Source: a phage
Sequence record: PV357171.2
Length of the DNA stretch: 64,000 nucleotides
Reading direction: 5' to 3' (one strand)
A program made the position numbers and the translations under genes. Below the pieces are notes generated by a model. That model saw only the letters and a list, made by a program, of their open reading frames with translations. It did not search any database and was not told the DNA's origin. Of the stretch, positions 6,143 through 47,884 are shown one piece after another. Each line of letters begins with the position of its first letter. The first letter of the stretch is position 1.

Positions 6143-7458
6143 TGGAAGTATCAAGACCTTACGTTAATACAGTAGATGTTATTGATTTCGGAATAGATAA
6201 ACGTTTCTTTCGTCTACCTGTTTCGGGAATACTAGCACAAGAAGGTATTACACCTAATGGTCCTCAAATAGCGATTATTAATGCTCTAGAGGATCCTAGA
6301 CATCGTTTTGTAACGGCGTGTGTATCACGCCGTGTAGGTAAATCCTTCATCGCATATACTCTTGGGTTCCTAAAATTGCTGGAACCTAATGTGAAGGTGT
6401 TAGTAGTTGCTCCTAACTATTCACTGGCCAACATCGGATGGTCTCAGATTCGTGGTCTTATTAAAAAATATGGCCTACAAACTGAACGTGAGAACGCTAA
6501 AGATAAGGAAATTGAGTTAGCTAATGGTTCTCTGTTTAAACTAGCTTCCGCTGCTCAGGCTGACTCCGCAGTTGGACGTTCATATGATTTTATCATCTTT
6601 GACGAGGCGGCAATTTCCGATGTGGGTGGTGATGCCTTCAGGGTTCAGCTGCGTCCTACCCTAGATAAACCTAATTCTAAGGCTCTATTTATTTCCACCC
6701 CTCGTGGAGGTAACTGGTTTAAAGAGTTTTACGCCTACGGATTTGATGATACGTTGCCTAACTGGGTATCTATTCATGGTACATATCGTGATAACCCTCG
6801 TGCTGACCTGAATGATATAGAAGAAGCACGTCGTACGGTTAGTAAAAACTACTTCCGCCAGGAATATGAAGCTGACTTCTCTGTATTTGAAGGTCAGATT
6901 TTTGATACTTTCAATGCTATTGACCATGTTAAAGACCTTAAGGGTATGCGTCATTTCTTTAAAGATGATGAAGCATTCGAAACGTTGCTTGGTATCGACG
7001 TTGGTTATCGTGATCCTACAGCAGTTCTTACTATTAAGTATCATTACGATACGGATACTTACTATGTATTAGAAGAGTACCAGCAGGCGGAGAAAACTAC
7101 AGCTCAGCATGCTGCTTACATTCAGCACTGTATAGATCGTTATAAAGTTGATCGTATTTTTGTTGACTCCGCGGCAGCTCAGTTCCGTCAAGACTTAGCT
7201 TATGAGCATGAAATTGCATCAGCTCCAGCTAAAAAATCTGTCCTAGATGGCCTAGCATGCCTGCAAGCACTGTTCCAACAGGGTAAGATTATTGTAGATG
7301 CCTCATGCTCCTCCTTAATTCATGCACTGCAGAACTATAAGTGGGATTTCCAAGAAGGTGAAGAAAAATTATCCCGTGAAAAACCACGTCATGATGCTAA
7401 CTCTCACCTTTGTGATGCGCTGCGCTACGGAATTTACTCTATTTCCCGTGGTAAATAA
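6142..7458 (+). CDS. terminase large subunit
   Basis: 438 aa; Walker A-like VSRRVGKS, ATPase plus nuclease domain layout; length as I recall for T5 TerL. Confidence 0.85.
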   Translation: MEVSRPYVNTVDVIDFGIDKRFFRLPVSGILAQEGITPNGPQIAIINALEDPRHRFVTACVSRRVGKSFIAYTLGFLKLLEPNVKVLVVAPNYSLANIGWSQIRGLIKKYGLQTERENAKDKEIELANGSLFKLASAAQADSAVGRSYDFIIFDEAAISDVGGDAFRVQLRPTLDKPNSKALFISTPRGGNWFKEFYAYGFDDTLPNWVSIHGTYRDNPRADLNDIEEARRTVSKNYFRQEYEADFSVFEGQIFDTFNAIDHVKDLKGMRHFFKDDEAFETLLGIDVGYRDPTAVLTIKYHYDTDTYYVLEEYQQAEKTTAQHAAYIQHCIDRYKVDRIFVDSAAAQFRQDLAYEHEIASAPAKKSVLDGLACLQALFQQGKIIVDASCSSLIHALQNYKWDFQEGEEKLSREKPRHDANSHLCDALRYGIYSISRGK

Positions 7459-42055: not shown

Positions 42056-42946
42056 TTATACCAAATCTTTAAGCGATTCAGCAACTAAAATTTCAATACG
42101 TTTTGCTAACATATCAATTTCATCTTTGTTTAAATCACCCGGATCTTTGCCTTCGGGCAGAAGAAAGTTAGCAACTACAGGTGTTAAACGCGTTTTTGTA
42201 CGAATTAACTTGGCCAATGCTTGTGCAGCTTTATTACCAGAAGCATCATTATCTAGTAAGATAACAACAACTTTTACACCGGCAATAATATAAGGACTGA
42301 ACTTATCTGCAATGTTATCCGAAGTAAACTGATGTGTACCAAAGCAGCAAGAAGCATAGTCTATACCATTATCCTCTAGGTTCAGCATATCAAAGATACC
42401 TTCAACTAGAATAAGAACTGGAGTATTATATCGTACAGGGAAAATCGGTGGTGAAACTTGTTTTGGTTTTACTAAGTATTTAGGAGGGGCAGAACTGTTT
42501 ATAGAACGACCCAAAAATAGGATATTGCGTCCAACAGCATCTGTGATTGGGAATACAATTCTGCCTTCCCAGTCTGCTTGATGTTGGAAAGCAAAATATT
42601 TCTTCAAGGTCTTAGAACTTATACCTCGGAAATCACCTTCGAAAAGGCAAGCAGATTCAGGAATTGCAAGATTCGTTGATCCATTCCTAATCTCTGAAAT
42701 CTTTTTACGTACTTGCGATAGTCTTGGGGACTGTCGGTACTGAGTCTCATTAAAATAATGGTAAATGCTCGGTATACCTTTACCGAAGCCACAACTCAAG
42801 CAGTGCATAATACCTGTTTCAGGATCAATACGCAAACTTGGGTGTTTATCGTCATGATCTGGATTGAGACAACAGATGAGGATGTCCCCACCTGTGTCTT
42901 TATATTCAATGCCTTTCAGATCAAGTAGTTCTGTTATTCTACTCAT
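42056..42946 (-). CDS. DNA primase (zinc-binding plus Toprim)
   Basis: CxxC...HCLSCG zinc motif; Toprim-like LVEGIFDM. Confidence 0.8.
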   Translation of the reverse strand: MSRITELLDLKGIEYKDTGGDILICCLNPDHDDKHPSLRIDPETGIMHCLSCGFGKGIPSIYHYFNETQYRQSPRLSQVRKKISEIRNGSTNLAIPESACLFEGDFRGISSKTLKKYFAFQHQADWEGRIVFPITDAVGRNILFLGRSINSSAPPKYLVKPKQVSPPIFPVRYNTPVLILVEGIFDMLNLEDNGIDYASCCFGTHQFTSDNIADKFSPYIIAGVKVVVILLDNDASGNKAAQALAKLIRTKTRLTPVVANFLLPEGKDPGDLNKDEIDMLAKRIEILVAESLKDLV

Positions 42947-44415
42947 ATATCGCTGGCCTGTTCACCTGTTGAATTTTCAGCTTTGTCTTTCTTAGCACGT
43001 TTAGGTTGAGCCGGCTTATCCTTCTCAATAGGGATAACGAACTCAGCTTCCATTTGAGATATATCTTCCATTGCTAGGTTGGTAGTGTTATCCATCTGCA
43101 GGGTTTCCCAGTTCATCTTAGGCATAAACTTCACGCTATCAGAAGAACGGGTCTTAACGAAGTCAAACATAATAGCACCTTGACCATTATCAGCTTTTGC
43201 AGCATTAAGATTAGCAGCCATGTCTGCGGAATCAAGAATCCCCTTTGACATACGTGTTCTACCATCTTGATCGATCTGGTAAGGAGCTACTCCAGCCACG
43301 TTATGTTTCTGGCAGATGGATTTGAAAGATGAACTAACAACCATCTGTTCTTTCCAGTCATACATATCAATGGTCTTTGAATCTGGAAGTCTTGTTTGGT
43401 TAATATAGTCTAGAAGAGCTACAGTAACCTTATCACCATATTTAGCAACTAGTTTATTTAATTCTACGTCAACCGTCGTAATAGACAGTTCAGGATCGTA
43501 AACGATGATCATAGGAGTGTGAAGCTCATAGCCTTCAAGGAGTTTACTTTCCATATCATAGAAGTCACTCATTTTAGCCATAGTGTATTGCTTAACGAAG
43601 TTATCGAAAAGCTCTTCACCACCATTAAACATTCTAGCCCTAGTTCTGGCTAATCTCAACAGAGCAGCACCTTCAAGAGTGTTATTACGCATTGCTAATG
43701 CAGATACTCCAGCTAACATAGCCAGATTACGTCTAAACACTTCGTGCTCTTTCATCTCAATTGAGAAATATGGAGCAATGTCTCCATTCAAATATTGCTG
43801 AACCTGTATGTTTGAACAGATAATGGATTTACCAGTACCACGCCAACCACCAAGCAGTAACGTTTCTGTGCGAGCTAAACCAATTTGAGCGTCGAACTCA
43901 TTACAAATACCAAGAGCGATTAAGTTCAGTTTGGTATCTTCTTCTCTCTGGAAAATACGCATTGTGTCTGCGTTGAATACCTTTCCAGTATTCGTTACTT
44001 TCTCTTCTAATTTTAAGTGAAGGGAGGCAACTCGGTTGAGAATTTCTCCCTGATCCAGCATTGTTAAATCTTGAAGCACGTCTGTTTCTAGAAGCTTCAG
44101 GAATAAATCCTGTGTATATTCGGCCTCTAGGACTTCAAGTGCCTGTTCCATGCTAACTTCTGGAATTTGAGTGTTAGCTAAAACGACTAGAGCTTGAGAA
44201 AGGCGGGCGTTCCTATTAGCCTCAAGCATCAGTGCGTCAATGGATGGCATTGTGTTATATTTTTTATAATAATTCTGGACGGCTTGGTAAATTGAGGAGA
44301 AAGCGTCATTAAAATGATCTTTATGCAGTTTTGAGAATGTTTCCAATGCTATTTGCTTCTGTTCGGAAGCTAGAAGCATCTTCAACACTACAGCTTGCAC
44401 GTTAAACAAGGTCAT
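42943..44415 (-). CDS. DnaB-like replicative helicase; start ambiguous (44415 ATG or 44466)
   Basis: Walker A GGWRGTGKS; RecA-like core. Confidence 0.65.
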   Translation of the reverse strand: MTLFNVQAVVLKMLLASEQKQIALETFSKLHKDHFNDAFSSIYQAVQNYYKKYNTMPSIDALMLEANRNARLSQALVVLANTQIPEVSMEQALEVLEAEYTQDLFLKLLETDVLQDLTMLDQGEILNRVASLHLKLEEKVTNTGKVFNADTMRIFQREEDTKLNLIALGICNEFDAQIGLARTETLLLGGWRGTGKSIICSNIQVQQYLNGDIAPYFSIEMKEHEVFRRNLAMLAGVSALAMRNNTLEGAALLRLARTRARMFNGGEELFDNFVKQYTMAKMSDFYDMESKLLEGYELHTPMIIVYDPELSITTVDVELNKLVAKYGDKVTVALLDYINQTRLPDSKTIDMYDWKEQMVVSSSFKSICQKHNVAGVAPYQIDQDGRTRMSKGILDSADMAANLNAAKADNGQGAIMFDFVKTRSSDSVKFMPKMNWETLQMDNTTNLAMEDISQMEAEFVIPIEKDKPAQPKRAKKDKAENSTGEQASDI

Positions 44416-44497
44416 TCTCCTTTGCACGCTTTCGTGCCTTCTAAATGCAAAAAGGGGAAGGAGCATAGCCCCCTCCCCTTAGGTTTAATTTACCAGA

Positions 44498-45265
44498 TTA
44501 TTCAGCAGCCGCAGCTTTTGCATCCAGTTTAGCACGCTTAGCGGCACCATCATAGTCCTTAGCAACCAGACCACGACGAGACAGCATAGATTTAACACCG
44601 CGCTCAGATTTACCAGTTTTCTCAGCGATCTCAGCAACAGTCATGTTAACCAGATCCAGACCTTCTAACAGATCTTCACGAGTTTTAGCACTCGAGGTTT
44701 CCTGTACCGGCATAGCGGCGATACGACCTTCACGAAGCAGACTCAGAGCTTTACCACGGATCTGCTTGATATTACGACCGAAGTGAGCAGCGATAGCTTC
44801 AATAGTAGCACCAGCAACAACCTGATTAACAAAATCAGTTTCTTCATCCGGAGTGAAGGAACGAACAGCAGCAGCTTTTTCAGTTGGTTTAACAGAAGCG
44901 GTCATTTCCAGACTCAGGATCTTACCCTGTACCTGCTTAGCACCGAACTGACCACCAGCTACAGCAGCAGCGATTTCAGCATAGGTATACTGACCAGCAT
45001 GAGCGTTCAGGAAATCAACCAGTTCAGCTTCCTGCTCAGGAGTCCACGGAGATTTCTGCACTTCGTTAGCTTTCTGTACTTCAAAACCTTCTTTACGCAG
45101 TTTAGAGCCAACAGAGCGGGCAGTAACATCTTTGCCAGTTTCAGCAGCCAGTTCAGCAGCAATAGCAGCTACTTGTTCTTGAGAGATTACAGCAACACCC
45201 AGAGCAGTGGCTTTTGCTTTCAGAGACTCGGTTACACCTTCTACGTTCCAGTTCAGTTTAGACAT
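44498..45265 (-). CDS. hypothetical DNA-binding protein (D5-like?)
   Basis: 255 aa, Ala/Lys-rich; position between helicase and ligase. Confidence 0.3.
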   Translation of the reverse strand: MSKLNWNVEGVTESLKAKATALGVAVISQEQVAAIAAELAAETGKDVTARSVGSKLRKEGFEVQKANEVQKSPWTPEQEAELVDFLNAHAGQYTYAEIAAAVAGGQFGAKQVQGKILSLEMTASVKPTEKAAAVRSFTPDEETDFVNQVVAGATIEAIAAHFGRNIKQIRGKALSLLREGRIAAMPVQETSSAKTREDLLEGLDLVNMTVAEIAEKTGKSERGVKSMLSRRGLVAKDYDGAAKRAKLDAKAAAAE

Positions 45266-46037
45266 TATTATTTTTCTCCAATAGTTCTTTAATCGACAGG
45301 ATTTCTATCCCATTCGTTTCGGCTTTCTTATAAGATGAGGAAGAACGTTTTGATTCATCCTCACAGATCAGGTATTTGACGTCTTTGGTAACGGATTTCT
45401 TAACCGTATATCCTAGACCTTCTAAATAGTTTGTTGCATCCGTTCTATTTGCAAAATCTTGCAAAGATCCGGTAATACATACCGTTATTCCGTTTGGTTG
45501 GGCTACTAGACCATCAGTGATGATGACCTCAGCTTTAGCACCTTTAATACCAGTTGTGAATTTCCACGGTAATTCGATAACATCCTTGCCTTGTGGGGAA
45601 TTTAGCCAGGCTTTATAATTTTCTCCAGCCTTGCCGTCAGCCTTCACATCATGGAAGCTAGTGCAATTTTGGGATAATTTCTTTGCTGCAACCTCTCCGA
45701 TTAGAGGGATTCCTAAAGAACCGAGAACTGAACCAAAGTCAATGTCTCCGCGAACTTTAGTATTTAATTCGCTAATTAACTTAGCGGCAACCTTGCTACC
45801 CACGGCTCTAACCAAATCTTCTTCGGTTAGGTAAAATAGTTCTGAAATCTTCGTCAGCTCCAGCTTCTCAATAGTTTTTGGACCAAAGCCCTTTAACTTC
45901 ATTTTTGAACAGAAGTTCTCAATTAACTTACTTGATTGCGCTGGACAGTTGGACTTATTCCGACAAAATAATTGTCCGTTGACAAGATCTAGCTTAGAAC
46001 CACAAGAGGGACATTGTGTTGGAATTTCGATTTTCAT
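45258..46037 (-). CDS. NAD-dependent DNA ligase, C-terminal subunit (Zn finger, HhH, BRCT)
   Basis: C4 zinc finger CPSCGS...C..NKSNC; SD AAGGAAG before ATG 46037. Confidence 0.75.
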   Translation of the reverse strand: MKIEIPTQCPSCGSKLDLVNGQLFCRNKSNCPAQSSKLIENFCSKMKLKGFGPKTIEKLELTKISELFYLTEEDLVRAVGSKVAAKLISELNTKVRGDIDFGSVLGSLGIPLIGEVAAKKLSQNCTSFHDVKADGKAGENYKAWLNSPQGKDVIELPWKFTTGIKGAKAEVIITDGLVAQPNGITVCITGSLQDFANRTDATNYLEGLGYTVKKSVTKDVKYLICEDESKRSSSSYKKAETNGIEILSIKELLEKNNNV

Positions 46038-46067
46038 CAAATTTCTTCCTTATCAATTTATATAAAT

Positions 46068-46096
46068 ATTATAGCAAGTATTTAAGCATTTAGCAA
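46068..46096 (-). promoter_or_regulatory. T5-type early promoter inside the ligase A/B spacer
   Basis: TTGCTA-17-TATAAT on minus strand. Confidence 0.55.
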
Positions 46097-46241
46097 CTAC
46101 AATTTTAACTAACTTTGCTTACCCTCGCCATAACTTTCTATCCCTCAACTGAATGATAATAGTATATACCTAAGCGGCGAAAATGTCAATAACCACTTTA
46201 TAATTCCGATATGGTAGATGGGTAGCAAAGGGTTACATATA

Positions 46242-47216
46242 TTAATCGTATACTCGCTCTACTATGCACGGGATTACACCACCAGCACGAATCACTCGAA
46301 TCTGGCAACCGATCTCTAGATCAAGAGAGTTAATATAATCAACGTTATTAAGAGTCGCTTTAACAATTGTAGCGTCATCAATAATTACCGGTTCGAAATA
46401 TCCAACAGGAGTTACTTTACCAGAAGCCCCTACCTGCCACTCAACTTTGAGAAGAGTTGTAATTTCGCCTTCTTCATCTTGTTTAATTGCATAAGCACCG
46501 CGAGGATGTTTATTCGTCCAACCTTCACGGAAGAATTTATTGTTGTCATTAATACGAACAACTTTACCATCCGTTGGATACCAGTTGAAGTAGTTTTTAA
46601 TGTTCATTACAGTGATGAAATCTTCGTTAGCCAACCAAGACATATCATCTAAATAAGAACCTGTAATACCTACAGAATCTTCTGAACACTGAATACCATA
46701 AGCTACAAAGATTAATCCACCTTCCGCAATACGTTCGATGAAATCATCTTCTTCTTTTAAGTTAATAGCACCTGAAGCGTAGTTACGTTTGTTTTCTACT
46801 TCTTTAGTGATAAGAACTTCACCCGTGATTTGAGTTGGTACTTTTTGGGAAATCTTTTTCGGGATGTTCAGCAATCTAACGTTGCTTGTGACATCATTCC
46901 CTAGAATACCATTACCACGAGTTAACGCTTGAACAAACGTTCCGTCGATGTACAACAGAGAAATTGCGCAACCGTCTAGCTTATCAGTTTCTACGTCTTC
47001 AAGAGTAGTGAAGGGGGCTTTATCACCACGATCGAAGTAAACTTTTTGTAAAGAATACATACGATACAGATGTGGGATATCACCTTTCGGGCCGATAGCA
47101 TCTTCCGCCGTTGGGAAACGTTTTAACAGACGGTCATATTCTTCATCAGATATTAAAGACATACCCTGATAATATGCTTCTTGACAGCGTTTAATAAAGT
47201 CTTTTACATTAGTCAT
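46242..47216 (-). CDS. NAD-dependent DNA ligase, N-terminal subunit (adenylation plus OB)
   Basis: KxDG adenylation motif KLDGCAISLLY; 324 aa. Confidence 0.8.
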   Translation of the reverse strand: MTNVKDFIKRCQEAYYQGMSLISDEEYDRLLKRFPTAEDAIGPKGDIPHLYRMYSLQKVYFDRGDKAPFTTLEDVETDKLDGCAISLLYIDGTFVQALTRGNGILGNDVTSNVRLLNIPKKISQKVPTQITGEVLITKEVENKRNYASGAINLKEEDDFIERIAEGGLIFVAYGIQCSEDSVGITGSYLDDMSWLANEDFITVMNIKNYFNWYPTDGKVVRINDNNKFFREGWTNKHPRGAYAIKQDEEGEITTLLKVEWQVGASGKVTPVGYFEPVIIDDATIVKATLNNVDYINSLDLEIGCQIRVIRAGGVIPCIVERVYD

Positions 47217-47489
47217 TTATTCTGCCTCATAGTACGTGGGCTGTCTAGTGGACCCGTGCCATGTATAATTTTTGCAAAGATGCAAATATGTAGTTTTTAC
47301 TAGCCTATCTGACAACGGAGAGTATATTTCAGCTGTTAATACTTCTTTTTCGTAATGAAGTGAAATCAGCTTATACCCACTTCTAGTTTTAGTATACTTT
47401 TCTCCATTAATCTTCTCCTCCCACATAAGTATAAGAGGCTGTCCGATACATGGGAAAGGTTTAAGTGTACTTATATTTATCTTTTTCAC
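47217..47489 (-). CDS. hypothetical early protein (90 aa)
   Basis: ORF track; promoter upstream. Confidence 0.4.
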   Translation of the reverse strand: MKKINISTLKPFPCIGQPLILMWEEKINGEKYTKTRSGYKLISLHYEKEVLTAEIYSPLSDRLVKTTYLHLCKNYTWHGSTRQPTYYEAE

Positions 47490-47519
47490 TTTGCAACCCT
47501 CTCATTAATTTATATAAAT

Positions 47520-47548
47520 ATTATATAACAAAACTGAGTTGAAAGCAA
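47520..47548 (-). promoter_or_regulatory. T5-type early promoter (TTGCTT-17-TATAAT)
   Basis: Read from sequence. Confidence 0.6.
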
Positions 47549-47575
47549 ATACATTTATAAAGAAAAAGCCAAGAA

Positions 47576-47884
47576 CTAGGCATTCTTGGCTTTGAGTTCT
47601 TCAGCTCGTTTCTGTACTTCATGTAAAACCTCAGATTCGCTAAGAATCTGTGTAAACGCATAGAAAAGCTGTGATGTTGTTTCTAGAGTGTAAGGAAAAG
47701 AGAAGCCAGATTTCGTTGGAAACCATTCATCATTAATATCAAGAAGCCAGTAACGAATACCCATGTATAGATTCCCACGAAATTCAGATACTGTTAATCT
47801 TACTTGTTCTCCCTCCTTCTCCCAAAGTATGATGGACTGGTCATCAACGTGTCCTTCATAGTTTTGATTTACCTGTTCGCTCAT
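47576..47884 (-). CDS. hypothetical early protein (102 aa)
   Basis: ORF track. Confidence 0.4.
   Translation of the reverse strand: MSEQVNQNYEGHVDDQSIILWEKEGEQVRLTVSEFRGNLYMGIRYWLLDINDEWFPTKSGFSFPYTLETTSQLFYAFTQILSESEVLHEVQKRAEELKAKNA

Follow-up and report, generated by a model that had tools for sequence, protein, structure and literature searches.

The ligase locus of the window, i.e. of the whole 64 000-nucleotide stretch that was analysed (PV357171.2), very probably encodes the standard two-subunit NAD+-dependent DNA ligase of the Demerecviridae; this identification is read from sequence, and ligase activity is predicted on the same grounds. The window comes from a T5-like phage of that family (Tequintavirus type). 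Two separate ligase ORFs, ligA and ligB (Table 1), had been proposed by an earlier sequence-only reading; both were confirmed by the ORF listing and by domain matches, and the spacer between them, previously put at about 200 bp, measures 204 nt. The two-gene ligase is already known. It is real but ordinary, because it has been annotated since the T5 genome of 2005 and the two-chain structure of a relative has been solved. The split ligase of T5 was reported in 2005 and its subunits are termed A and B in the literature; the GenBank gene names are ligA/ligB (subunits A and B). Matches of 80–99% DNA identity over 80% or more of the region were found in 430 phage records, which are annotated as ligA/ligB or as subunits A/B. 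A ligB-like gene is present in 902 phage records, and each half forms its own PHROGs family (phrog_3359 for ligA, phrog_3498 for ligB).

Table 1. Features of the ligase locus and its surroundings (positions in the window)
Feature	Position	Strand	Description
Upstream early-type promoter, likely T5P35 counterpart	47520..47548	-	TTGCTT-17-TATAAT, ATATT discriminator, T5-type leader; found by eye
orf90	47217..47489	-	90 aa, abuts the ligA start codon; phrog_35018, E = 9e-49
ligA	46242..47216	-	324 aa; domain Ia, nucleotidyltransferase (adenylation) domain, OB fold; Pfam, NCBIfam, PHROGs and PDB matches
Intergenic spacer	46038..46241	-	204 nt; six stops in frame with ligA/ligB; no structured RNA
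Promoter, T5P36 equivalent	46161..46189	-	TTGACA-17-TATACT, 11/12
Promoter, T5P37 equivalent	46068..46096	-	TTGCTA-17-TGcTATAAT, 10/12, extended -10
ligB	45258..46037	-	259 aa from ATG; C4 zinc finger, HhH region, BRCT domain; Pfam, NCBIfam, PHROGs and PDB matches
D5-like DNA-binding/transcription regulator	44498..45265	-	phrog_323 ('transcriptional regulator, D5-like'), E = 1.5e-71; D5 in the annotation of relatives
Terminator-like hairpin and T run	44452..44480	-	Strong; 13 pairs, 8 G-C; closes the ligB-D5 unit

The ligA product matches DNA_ligase_aden (PF01653, E = 3e-23) and, over residues 253–322, DNA_ligase_OB (PF03120, E = 2.9e-22), which places an OB fold after the nucleotidyltransferase (NTase) domain; residues 1–324 align with positions 1–325 of the 325 in phrog_3359 (E = 6e-168). 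The first 60 residues gave no separate Pfam match; domain Ia is recognized by the NCBIfam LigA model NF005932, whose match begins with position 10 of the model aligned to residue 8, and the segment YYqgmsLISDeEYDrLL aligns with YYvladpEISDAEYDRLL of Thermus filiformis (a weak local alignment by itself). The KxDG motif (motif I) previously noticed in this product is KLDG, its lysine (K79) being aligned with that of K115-L-D-G in Escherichia coli LigA. In motif IV an arginine (R221) stands where E. coli has K290, and arginine is also found in the PR1 orthologue; the chemistry of LigA may therefore differ in detail. LigA would be the subunit that carries out the chemistry, reacting with NAD+ to give ligase-AMP, with NMN bound by domain Ia, the part of LigA enzymes that determines NAD+ specificity, and the adenylyl group carried on K79.

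The program-made ORF list carries the second ORF as far as a TTG (46040); ligB more probably starts at the ATG at 46037, because a Shine-Dalgarno sequence (AAGGAAG) lies 7 nt upstream of it and the PDB chain 9HU3_B also begins with MKIQIPT. The zinc-finger cysteines (C9, C12, C25 and C31) align with those of the E. coli zinc finger and the HhH region aligns with 2OWO as far as residue 529. In Pfam, the BRCT match (35 bits) exceeds its cut-off of 21.3 bits, while the HHH_2 match (24.4 bits) is slightly below the cut-off of 27 bits; against phrog_3498, residues 1–258 align with positions 1–255 of 256 (E = 1.3e-136). The zinc finger, HhH region and BRCT domain of LigB would complete the clamp around nicked DNA, as in single-chain LigA.

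Model NF005932 is tiled almost completely by the two proteins, ligA covering positions 10–385 and ligB positions 395–661 with about 9 positions missing, and the cut is therefore located in the linker between the OB fold and the zinc finger. Each half alone falls below the NCBIfam equivalog cut-offs. When ligA and ligB were concatenated, the alignment ran contiguously over the junction both with E. coli LigA (2OWO; query 213–446 to residues 282–529) and with 1V9P. The tiling and the alignments to bacterial LigA bear out the OB/zinc-finger boundary at which the sequence-only reading had placed the cut. All domains of the LigA family are present, but the usual bacterial architecture of a single polypeptide is not, since the window has two ORFs with 204 nt between them.

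A pair of this kind is found in PDB entries 9HU3 and 9I5I, in which chain A, 'DNA ligase (NAD(+))', and chain B, 'DNA ligase subunit B', were co-deposited. Over full lengths, chain A of 9HU3 matches ligA (E = 5e-104) and chain B matches ligB (E = 4e-80); 244 of the 248 residues of chain B could be aligned, at 100% identity, with the protein of Providencia phage vB_PreS_PR1/PSTCR5. Full-text searches of a literature library found no paper describing 9HU3, so that it is the deposition, together with homology, that speaks for a functional heterodimer. We infer that LigA and LigB associate non-covalently, in a stoichiometry that is likewise presumptive, and that they act like one LigA; when the phage replicates, the pair would seal nicks and join Okazaki fragments.

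A single polypeptide might nevertheless be restored by a group I or group II intron, an intein, translational bypass or readthrough, or the split might be a sequencing artefact or a sign of a pseudogene. ligA and ligB do lie in the same reading frame in the window (1179 nt between start codons), but the spacer holds six in-frame stop codons, which speak against an intein or readthrough, and its length varies (202 nt in T5, 204 nt here and 64–1359 nt in relatives), so that the shared frame is not conserved. An Rfam search over 45000..47600 gave noise only and no intron match even at E values up to 10, and the spacer folds no better than shuffled sequences (z = −0.71). No Hint/intein domain was found with Pfam, and the termini at the split coincide with domain edges in both ligase proteins. 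For bypass, the GAT codon beside the ligB ATG that could serve as a 'landing' codon is out of frame (judged by eye). As to an assembly artefact or chance, the 430 records cited above stand against either; the split is seen again in hundreds of independent genomes, and the PDB entry of the orthologue consists of two separate chains. Rejoining, or an artefact, is thus extremely improbable, and rejoining into one polypeptide is refuted as far as this type of analysis allows. The two-gene claim survives the explanations that had been named as able to overturn it (intron, intein and assembly artefact), each of which was looked for and none found.

The place of the split is invariant. Across the 86 loci checked, with identities as low as 38%, ligA always ends at query residue ~318–324 and ligB starts at residue 1–6, with gaps of 64–1359 nt between the two genes. 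This distribution would fit an old gene fission in the OB-to-zinc-finger linker of a compact phage ligase, presumably a change from one gene to two, which became fixed in all sampled Demerecviridae. Unsplit forms would have survived in more distant metagenomic T5-like phages, where ligases of 555–586 amino acids with 38–44% identity were found (P0039, P0040, P0054 and others). Their gene order matches (PC4-like, ligase, D5-like, DnaB, primase, PolA) and the adjacent D5-like genes are 37–43% identical to D5 of the window. P0039 and P0040 gave no match when searched in IMG/VR; the contigs were located by exact match. The unsplit ligases share with the pair in the window the compact catalytic half, the neighbours and the coupling of D5 to the ligase 3′ end; they differ in being a single ORF, whose linker of 18–32 amino acids takes the place of the stop codon, 204 nt and start codon of the window. 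A neighbour-joining tree of split and unsplit ligases is star-like, with both forms interleaved, and is uninformative on the polarity of fission and fusion; one fission, several fissions or re-fusions would all fit it.

The replication-module order ligA, ligB, D5, DnaB-like helicase is found in the window, with a 507-aa ORF (42943..44466) in the position where relatives annotate a replicative or DnaB-like helicase. The D5 ATG overlaps the ligB stop codon (ATGTCTAA), and ligB and D5 are therefore read as one unit. The promoter upstream of orf90 was missed by the promoter scan because its -35 hexamer matches at only 3 of 6 positions; it lies just downstream of a terminator-like hairpin (47593..47565), and T5P35 is equivalently placed in AY587007. 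This early promoter would read orf90 and ligA, no terminator following ligA.

Within the spacer, two tandem sigma-70 promoters were recognized by consensus, the one at 46161..46189 being the stronger. The T5 record AY587007 labels T5P36 and T5P37 'putative early promoters' in its ligA–ligB spacer, to which the spacer of the window is nearly identical. The promoter at 46068..46096 bears the ATATT discriminator that PMC7472727 describes for the early promoters of T5. The sequence-only reading was right to call it a T5-type early promoter (it is the equivalent of T5P37) and wrong to treat it as single, having missed the stronger one. In a comparison of spacers across T5-like phages, a promoter matching at least 10 of 12 consensus positions within 110 nt of ligB was present in 41 of the 51 distinct spacers, compared with 4.6% of shuffled spacers. 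The promoter directly 5′ of ligB is conserved in relatives at 38–100% identity and the tandem pair from enterobacterial to Vibrio members; the hexamers of 46161..46189 are kept both in a relative of 70% identity and in Vibrio Demerecviridae. If used, the two promoters would give rise to additional transcripts, limited to ligB and the D5 gene translationally coupled to it and ending at 44480..44452.

It is conceivable, though doubtful, that regulatory or functional uncoupling is what maintains the split, with the promoter at the split site over-expressing LigB and D5 relative to LigA and LigB having a role of its own, e.g. nick binding or partner recruitment via the BRCT domain. The conservation of the ligB-proximal promoter and of the tandem pair would agree with this, as would the translational coupling of ligB and D5 and the separate evolution of ligA and ligB as modules (DNA identity to T5 is 73–82% in the central part of ligA and 95–100% in the spacer, ligB and D5). 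However, strong promoters are common in T5 intergenic regions, at least 37 being numbered in AY587007 and four (T5P34–T5P37) lying in the 5 kb examined; the ligB-proximal promoter may serve D5 only, and the unsplit relatives do without an intergenic promoter at the ligase split site. We regard it as quite unlikely that the split is a maintained regulatory design, in which the linker promoter gives LigB and D5 higher expression and LigB could act apart from LigA, for example by occupying site-specific nicks in T5 DNA or by drawing in partners through its BRCT domain. Were this true, the unsplit relatives with a consensus promoter in their linker DNA (L097 and L088) would represent an intermediate stage. 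Such promoter-like sites were found in the linker DNA of 2 out of 10 unsplit genes (12/12 in L097, 10/12 in L088); equally good sites occur elsewhere in these genes and the enrichment is not significant.

The spacer had also been suggested to be the scar of a mobile insertion. For the window this is unsupported: its spacer consists essentially of promoters and a ribosome-binding site and is nearly identical in T5. More generally, a free-standing homing endonuclease gene could have entered the linker, made the split and later been lost, an origin that we consider unlikely. The case for it comes from Salmonella phage SP3 (L031) and vB_Sen_SG_WM_RUS_R2, in which a 218-aa GIY-YIG ORF lies exactly between ligA and ligB (Pfam E = 1e-5; 26 bits, cut-off 22.6 bits). 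The last ~12 codons of this ORF (ending in PSTISEL and the stop) fall in DNA common to endonuclease-free spacers, including that of the window (~46233..46198), but these ~35 nt shared at its 3′ end are ambiguous as a remnant; no ORF or endonuclease gene was found in the spacer of the window, whose 204 nt hold no fitting endonuclease-like coding remnant. Sought as a test of whether this C-terminal tail is intrinsic to the enzyme, homologues of the SP3 gene were found in only 3 phage records even at an E value of 0.01, with no PHROG match, whereas the split is present in all 902 records with a ligB-like gene; this insertion is therefore recent and secondary. Moreover, the GIY-YIG gene is placed upstream of intact promoters, and the spacers of distant relatives (64–118 nt) are just a promoter and a ribosome-binding site. 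Other genes have entered the spacers of Vibrio relatives, but Pfam and PHROGs identified these as DprA-like (phrog_768) or gave no assignment, so that they were rejected as endonucleases. A mobile-insertion origin of the split is conceivable though unlikely, being neither shown nor refuted, with the SP3-type gene occupying the same spacer.

As a discovery the locus carries little weight, since the T5 record and the literature already contain the split, the names of the subunits and the promoters of the spacer, and the PDB contains the two chains of an orthologue. What is added to the known system is the invariant split point, the promoter at the cut, the unsplit relatives in the same gene order and the occasional endonuclease gene in the spacer, which might be of use in studies of phage gene fission and of the continued co-adaptation of the halves.

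Other phage 'genes in pieces' are reportedly associated with free-standing homing endonucleases, namely Aeh1 nrdA with mobE and T4 genes 39/60 with mobA. There, too, two neighbouring genes encode the parts of an essential enzyme of DNA metabolism, which reassemble as proteins, and SP3 likewise has a GIY-YIG gene between its ligase halves; in contrast, the window and nearly all its relatives have promoters in the spacer and no endonuclease. With the single-chain bacterial enzymes (E. coli 2OWO and T. filiformis 1V9P; 25–40% identity) the ligase of the window shares the domain order (Ia, NTase, OB, Zn, HhH, BRCT), the KxDG lysine, the C4 zinc finger and the motif V lysine. It differs from them in consisting of two polypeptides, in lacking ~90 residues overall, for the most part in the NTase domain, and in the lysine to arginine change of motif IV. 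The ligase of Providencia phage vB_PreS_PR1 (9HU3/9I5I) has orthologous A and B chains of 339 and 248 amino acids; its sequence is substantially diverged from that of the window, with small insertions in chain A and a shorter stretch before the BRCT domain in chain B. Bacteriophage T5 (dnlj1/dnlj2; AAU05253/AAU05254; AY587007) has the same gene pair, order, split point, spacer and promoters (T5P36/T5P37), with D5 downstream, and protein identity to the window is 98% for ligB and 87% for ligA. The window differs from T5 in its ligA, a diverged allele with 73–82% DNA identity to T5 in the central part of the gene, in a spacer that is 2 nt longer and in the 90-aa ORF before ligA, which is absent from T5 ATCC 11303-B5 (AY587007) and present in T5_ev212.

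The sequence-only reading had assigned an NAD-dependent DNA ligase to two genes cut exactly at the boundary between the OB and zinc-finger domains. Its coordinates, domain assignment and boundary are borne out by the domain matches and because the two products tile the NCBIfam LigA model NF005932 (664 positions; LigA covers 10-385 and LigB 395-661), while concatenated LigA+LigB is aligned by phmmer, unbroken over the junction, to E. coli LigA (2OWO, residues 282-529) and to T. filiformis LigA (1V9P). These alignments place the cut a few residues ahead of the first cysteine of the zinc finger (CxxC...CxxxxxC) that forms the N-terminus of the 259-aa LigB. Each half has its own PHROGs family, matched end to end. 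K79 of the KLDG motif corresponds to K115, the active-site lysine of E. coli, and the motif V lysine is retained; the motif IV lysine (E. coli K290) is replaced by arginine (R221). An arginine also occupies this position in the PR1 orthologue (the two-chain ligase of Providencia phage vB_PreS_PR1; PDB 9HU3) and, judged by eye, in an unsplit relative, P0039.

Features of the ligase locus and of genes found in longer ligA-ligB spacers
Feature	Coordinates	Strand	Remarks
Terminator-like hairpin	47593..47565	minus	First element of the 44.4-47.6 kb series
Promoter upstream of orf90-ligA	47548..47520	minus	Read by eye; ATATT discriminator present
orf90, 90 aa	47217..47489	minus	phrog_35018; abuts ligA start
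ligA, 324 aa	46242..47216	minus	NAD-ligase adenylation and OB domain matches
ligA/ligB gap (spacer), 204 nt	46038..46241	minus	
Spacer promoter 1	46189..46161	minus	TTGACA-17-TATACT, 11/12; consensus scan
Spacer promoter 2	46096..46068	minus	TTGCTA-17-TATAAT with TG, 10/12; consensus scan; ATATT discriminator
ligB, 259 aa counted from ATG	45258..46037	minus	HhH and BRCT matches; zinc finger
D5, 255-aa ORF	44498..45265	minus	8-nt overlap with ligB
Strong terminator-like hairpin	44480..44452	minus	After D5
GIY-YIG endonuclease-like ORF, 218 aa	L031 5184..5840 (SP3, MG387042)		Overlaps ligA stop; annotated 'hypothetical protein'
Gap genes in Vibrio/related Demerecviridae	L003 2469..3427; L004 2469..3448; L034 4641..5844; L037 5071..5903		

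The two-gene ligase is thus real and correctly described, and it is already known: the T5 genome paper had reported the split, ligase subunits A and B are listed in PMC3632103 and PMC4319617, and the region matches 473 phage records, 430 of them with coverage of at least 80% and an identity of 80-99%. What is added here is a second spacer promoter, the finding that the cut and a promoter located there are both conserved throughout the family, and the existence of syntenic unsplit relatives.

The small gene preceding ligA, orf90, has no counterpart in T5 ATCC 11303-B5, where T5P35 lies directly before dnlj1, and phage oldekolle carries an additional 66-aa ORF at the same site; this position is variable for small genes. 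DNA identity to T5 and to another compared locus (L007) is only 73-82% in central ligA (46417..47116) and 92-100%, mostly at least 95%, from the ligA 3' end through the spacer, ligB and D5 (44498..46416). Judged from these identities, a mosaic boundary lies inside ligA, pairing a diverged catalytic-subunit allele with a near-T5 ligB.

An intron or intein restoring a single polypeptide, named in the sequence-only reading as what would overturn it, was not found. Both possibilities, as well as readthrough and bypass, were rejected because six stops interrupt the ligA/ligB frame within the spacer, an Rfam search of it gave no match even with E allowed up to 10, its folding is no stronger than that of shuffled sequence (z = -0.71), neither protein contains an intein domain, and both end or begin at a domain edge.

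Promoters were sought by a consensus scan of the minus strand. The early promoter previously proposed in the spacer (promoter 2) was recovered, but promoter 1 had been missed. T5 record AY587007 annotates dnlj1, dnlj2 and, within the spacer, two 'putative early promoters' (T5P36 and T5P37); the window and T5 spacers differ by one substitution and a 2-nt indel. The ATATT discriminator is reported to be common to T5 early promoters (PMC7472727). No terminator-like site was found between ligA and the two spacer promoters. Downstream of promoter 1 (46105..46160, minus strand) come a conserved leader, ATTATCATTCAGTTGAGGGA, that contains a Shine-Dalgarno-like GAGGGA and, after it, an 8-codon mini-ORF (ATG at 46131; MARVSKVS, stop); the leader is kept in Klebsiella and Vibrio relatives, the mini-ORF ATG is not. 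This segment resembles a promoter-plus-leader unit that lacks a gene of its own.

The comparison of spacers across T5-like phages that had been suggested was run over 86 loci drawn from GenBank phages and 80 IMG/VR contigs, the most diverged ligB among them having 38% identity. Every one of the 86 is cut at the same place, with the end of ligA at query residue about 318-324, the start of ligB at residue 1-6 and a spacer of 64 to 1359 nt. The promoter at the cut is also conserved, a sigma-70 match of at least 10/12 being present within 110 nt of ligB in 41 of 51 distinct spacers versus 4.6% of shuffled ones; in the remaining ten, where the match is weaker, TTGnnn-17-(TG)nTATAAT is still visible by eye. 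The tandem pair is retained in Vibrio members. By tblastn against the phage collection, Demerecviridae of the enterobacterial, Pectobacterium, Providencia and Vibrio groups have the two-piece ligase; the phage ligases next in similarity, those of jumbo phages at 25-29% identity, are encoded in one piece.

It had further been suggested that the spacer is the scar of a mobile insertion. That it is accessible to homing endonucleases follows from the GIY-YIG ORF of Salmonella phage SP3 and of phage vB_Sen_SG_WM_RUS_R2, which immediately follows the ligA stop codon region, has both intact promoters downstream and belongs to no PHROG family. However, this insertion must be secondary, since it is found in 3 phage records, against about 900 that have the split. 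Its last ~12 codons are sequence common to endonuclease-free spacers, including window ~46233..46198; more parsimoniously, the gene would have inserted beside pre-existing spacer sequence, the shared codons being less readily explained as a remnant of deletion. In Vibrio and related Demerecviridae the gap is occupied by a DprA-like gene (phrog_768, E about 1e-48), accompanied by one or two small unknown ORFs, and there too the tandem promoters remain directly before ligB. Because the shortest spacers, in distant relatives, hold a promoter and a ribosome-binding site and nothing else, an endonuclease origin of the split is possible but unsupported.

An exhaustive HMMER search with LigA returned, amid stand-alone halves, single-chain proteins of 555-586 aa (38-44% identity). 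Gene order on their metagenomic contigs (L087-L098) is that of T5 (PC4-like regulator, ligase, D5-like gene, DnaB, primase, PolA), with D5-like genes 37-43% identical to window D5. In one of them, L087, two genes for NAD+ salvage, NAMPT and PRPP-synthetase-like, lie a few kb ahead of the ligase. The OB-to-cysteine linker measures 18-32 aa in these relatives, about 22 aa in E. coli (counted from the phmmer alignment) and 8+8 residues in the window; the simplest reading is that a compact ancestral phage ligase underwent fission within its linker. In a crude NJ tree split and unsplit forms are interleaved, and the number of events is not countable from it. Promoter-like sites occur in the linker-coding DNA of two unsplit genes (L097, a perfect 12/12 sigma-70 match at nt 893-921 of the ligase gene; L088, 10/12 with TG at 6741..6770). 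Linker enrichment was rejected as not significant, equally good sites occurring elsewhere in these AT-rich genes (e.g. the NTase domain of L098); the linker sites may be due to chance.

From consensus matches, conservation and the T5 annotation, we infer that the upstream promoter would transcribe orf90-ligA and, with no terminator, continue into ligB, the two spacer promoters adding transcripts of ligB and D5 only, as far as the terminator after D5. LigA would react with NAD+ to adenylate itself and would catalyse sealing; LigB would contribute the BRCT domain and a DNA clamp formed by its zinc finger and HhH region. The two would assemble non-covalently into the equivalent of one LigA, a model supported by the co-deposition of the PR1 orthologue chains (PDB 9HU3/9I5I), for which a literature search found no describing publication. 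Chain B of these entries is 100% identical to Providencia phage vB_PreS_PR1/PSTCR5 over the aligned 244 of 248 residues. Window LigA is matched by the 339-aa 'DNA ligase (NAD(+))' chain at E 5e-104, and window LigB by the 248-aa 'DNA ligase subunit B' chain at E 4e-80.
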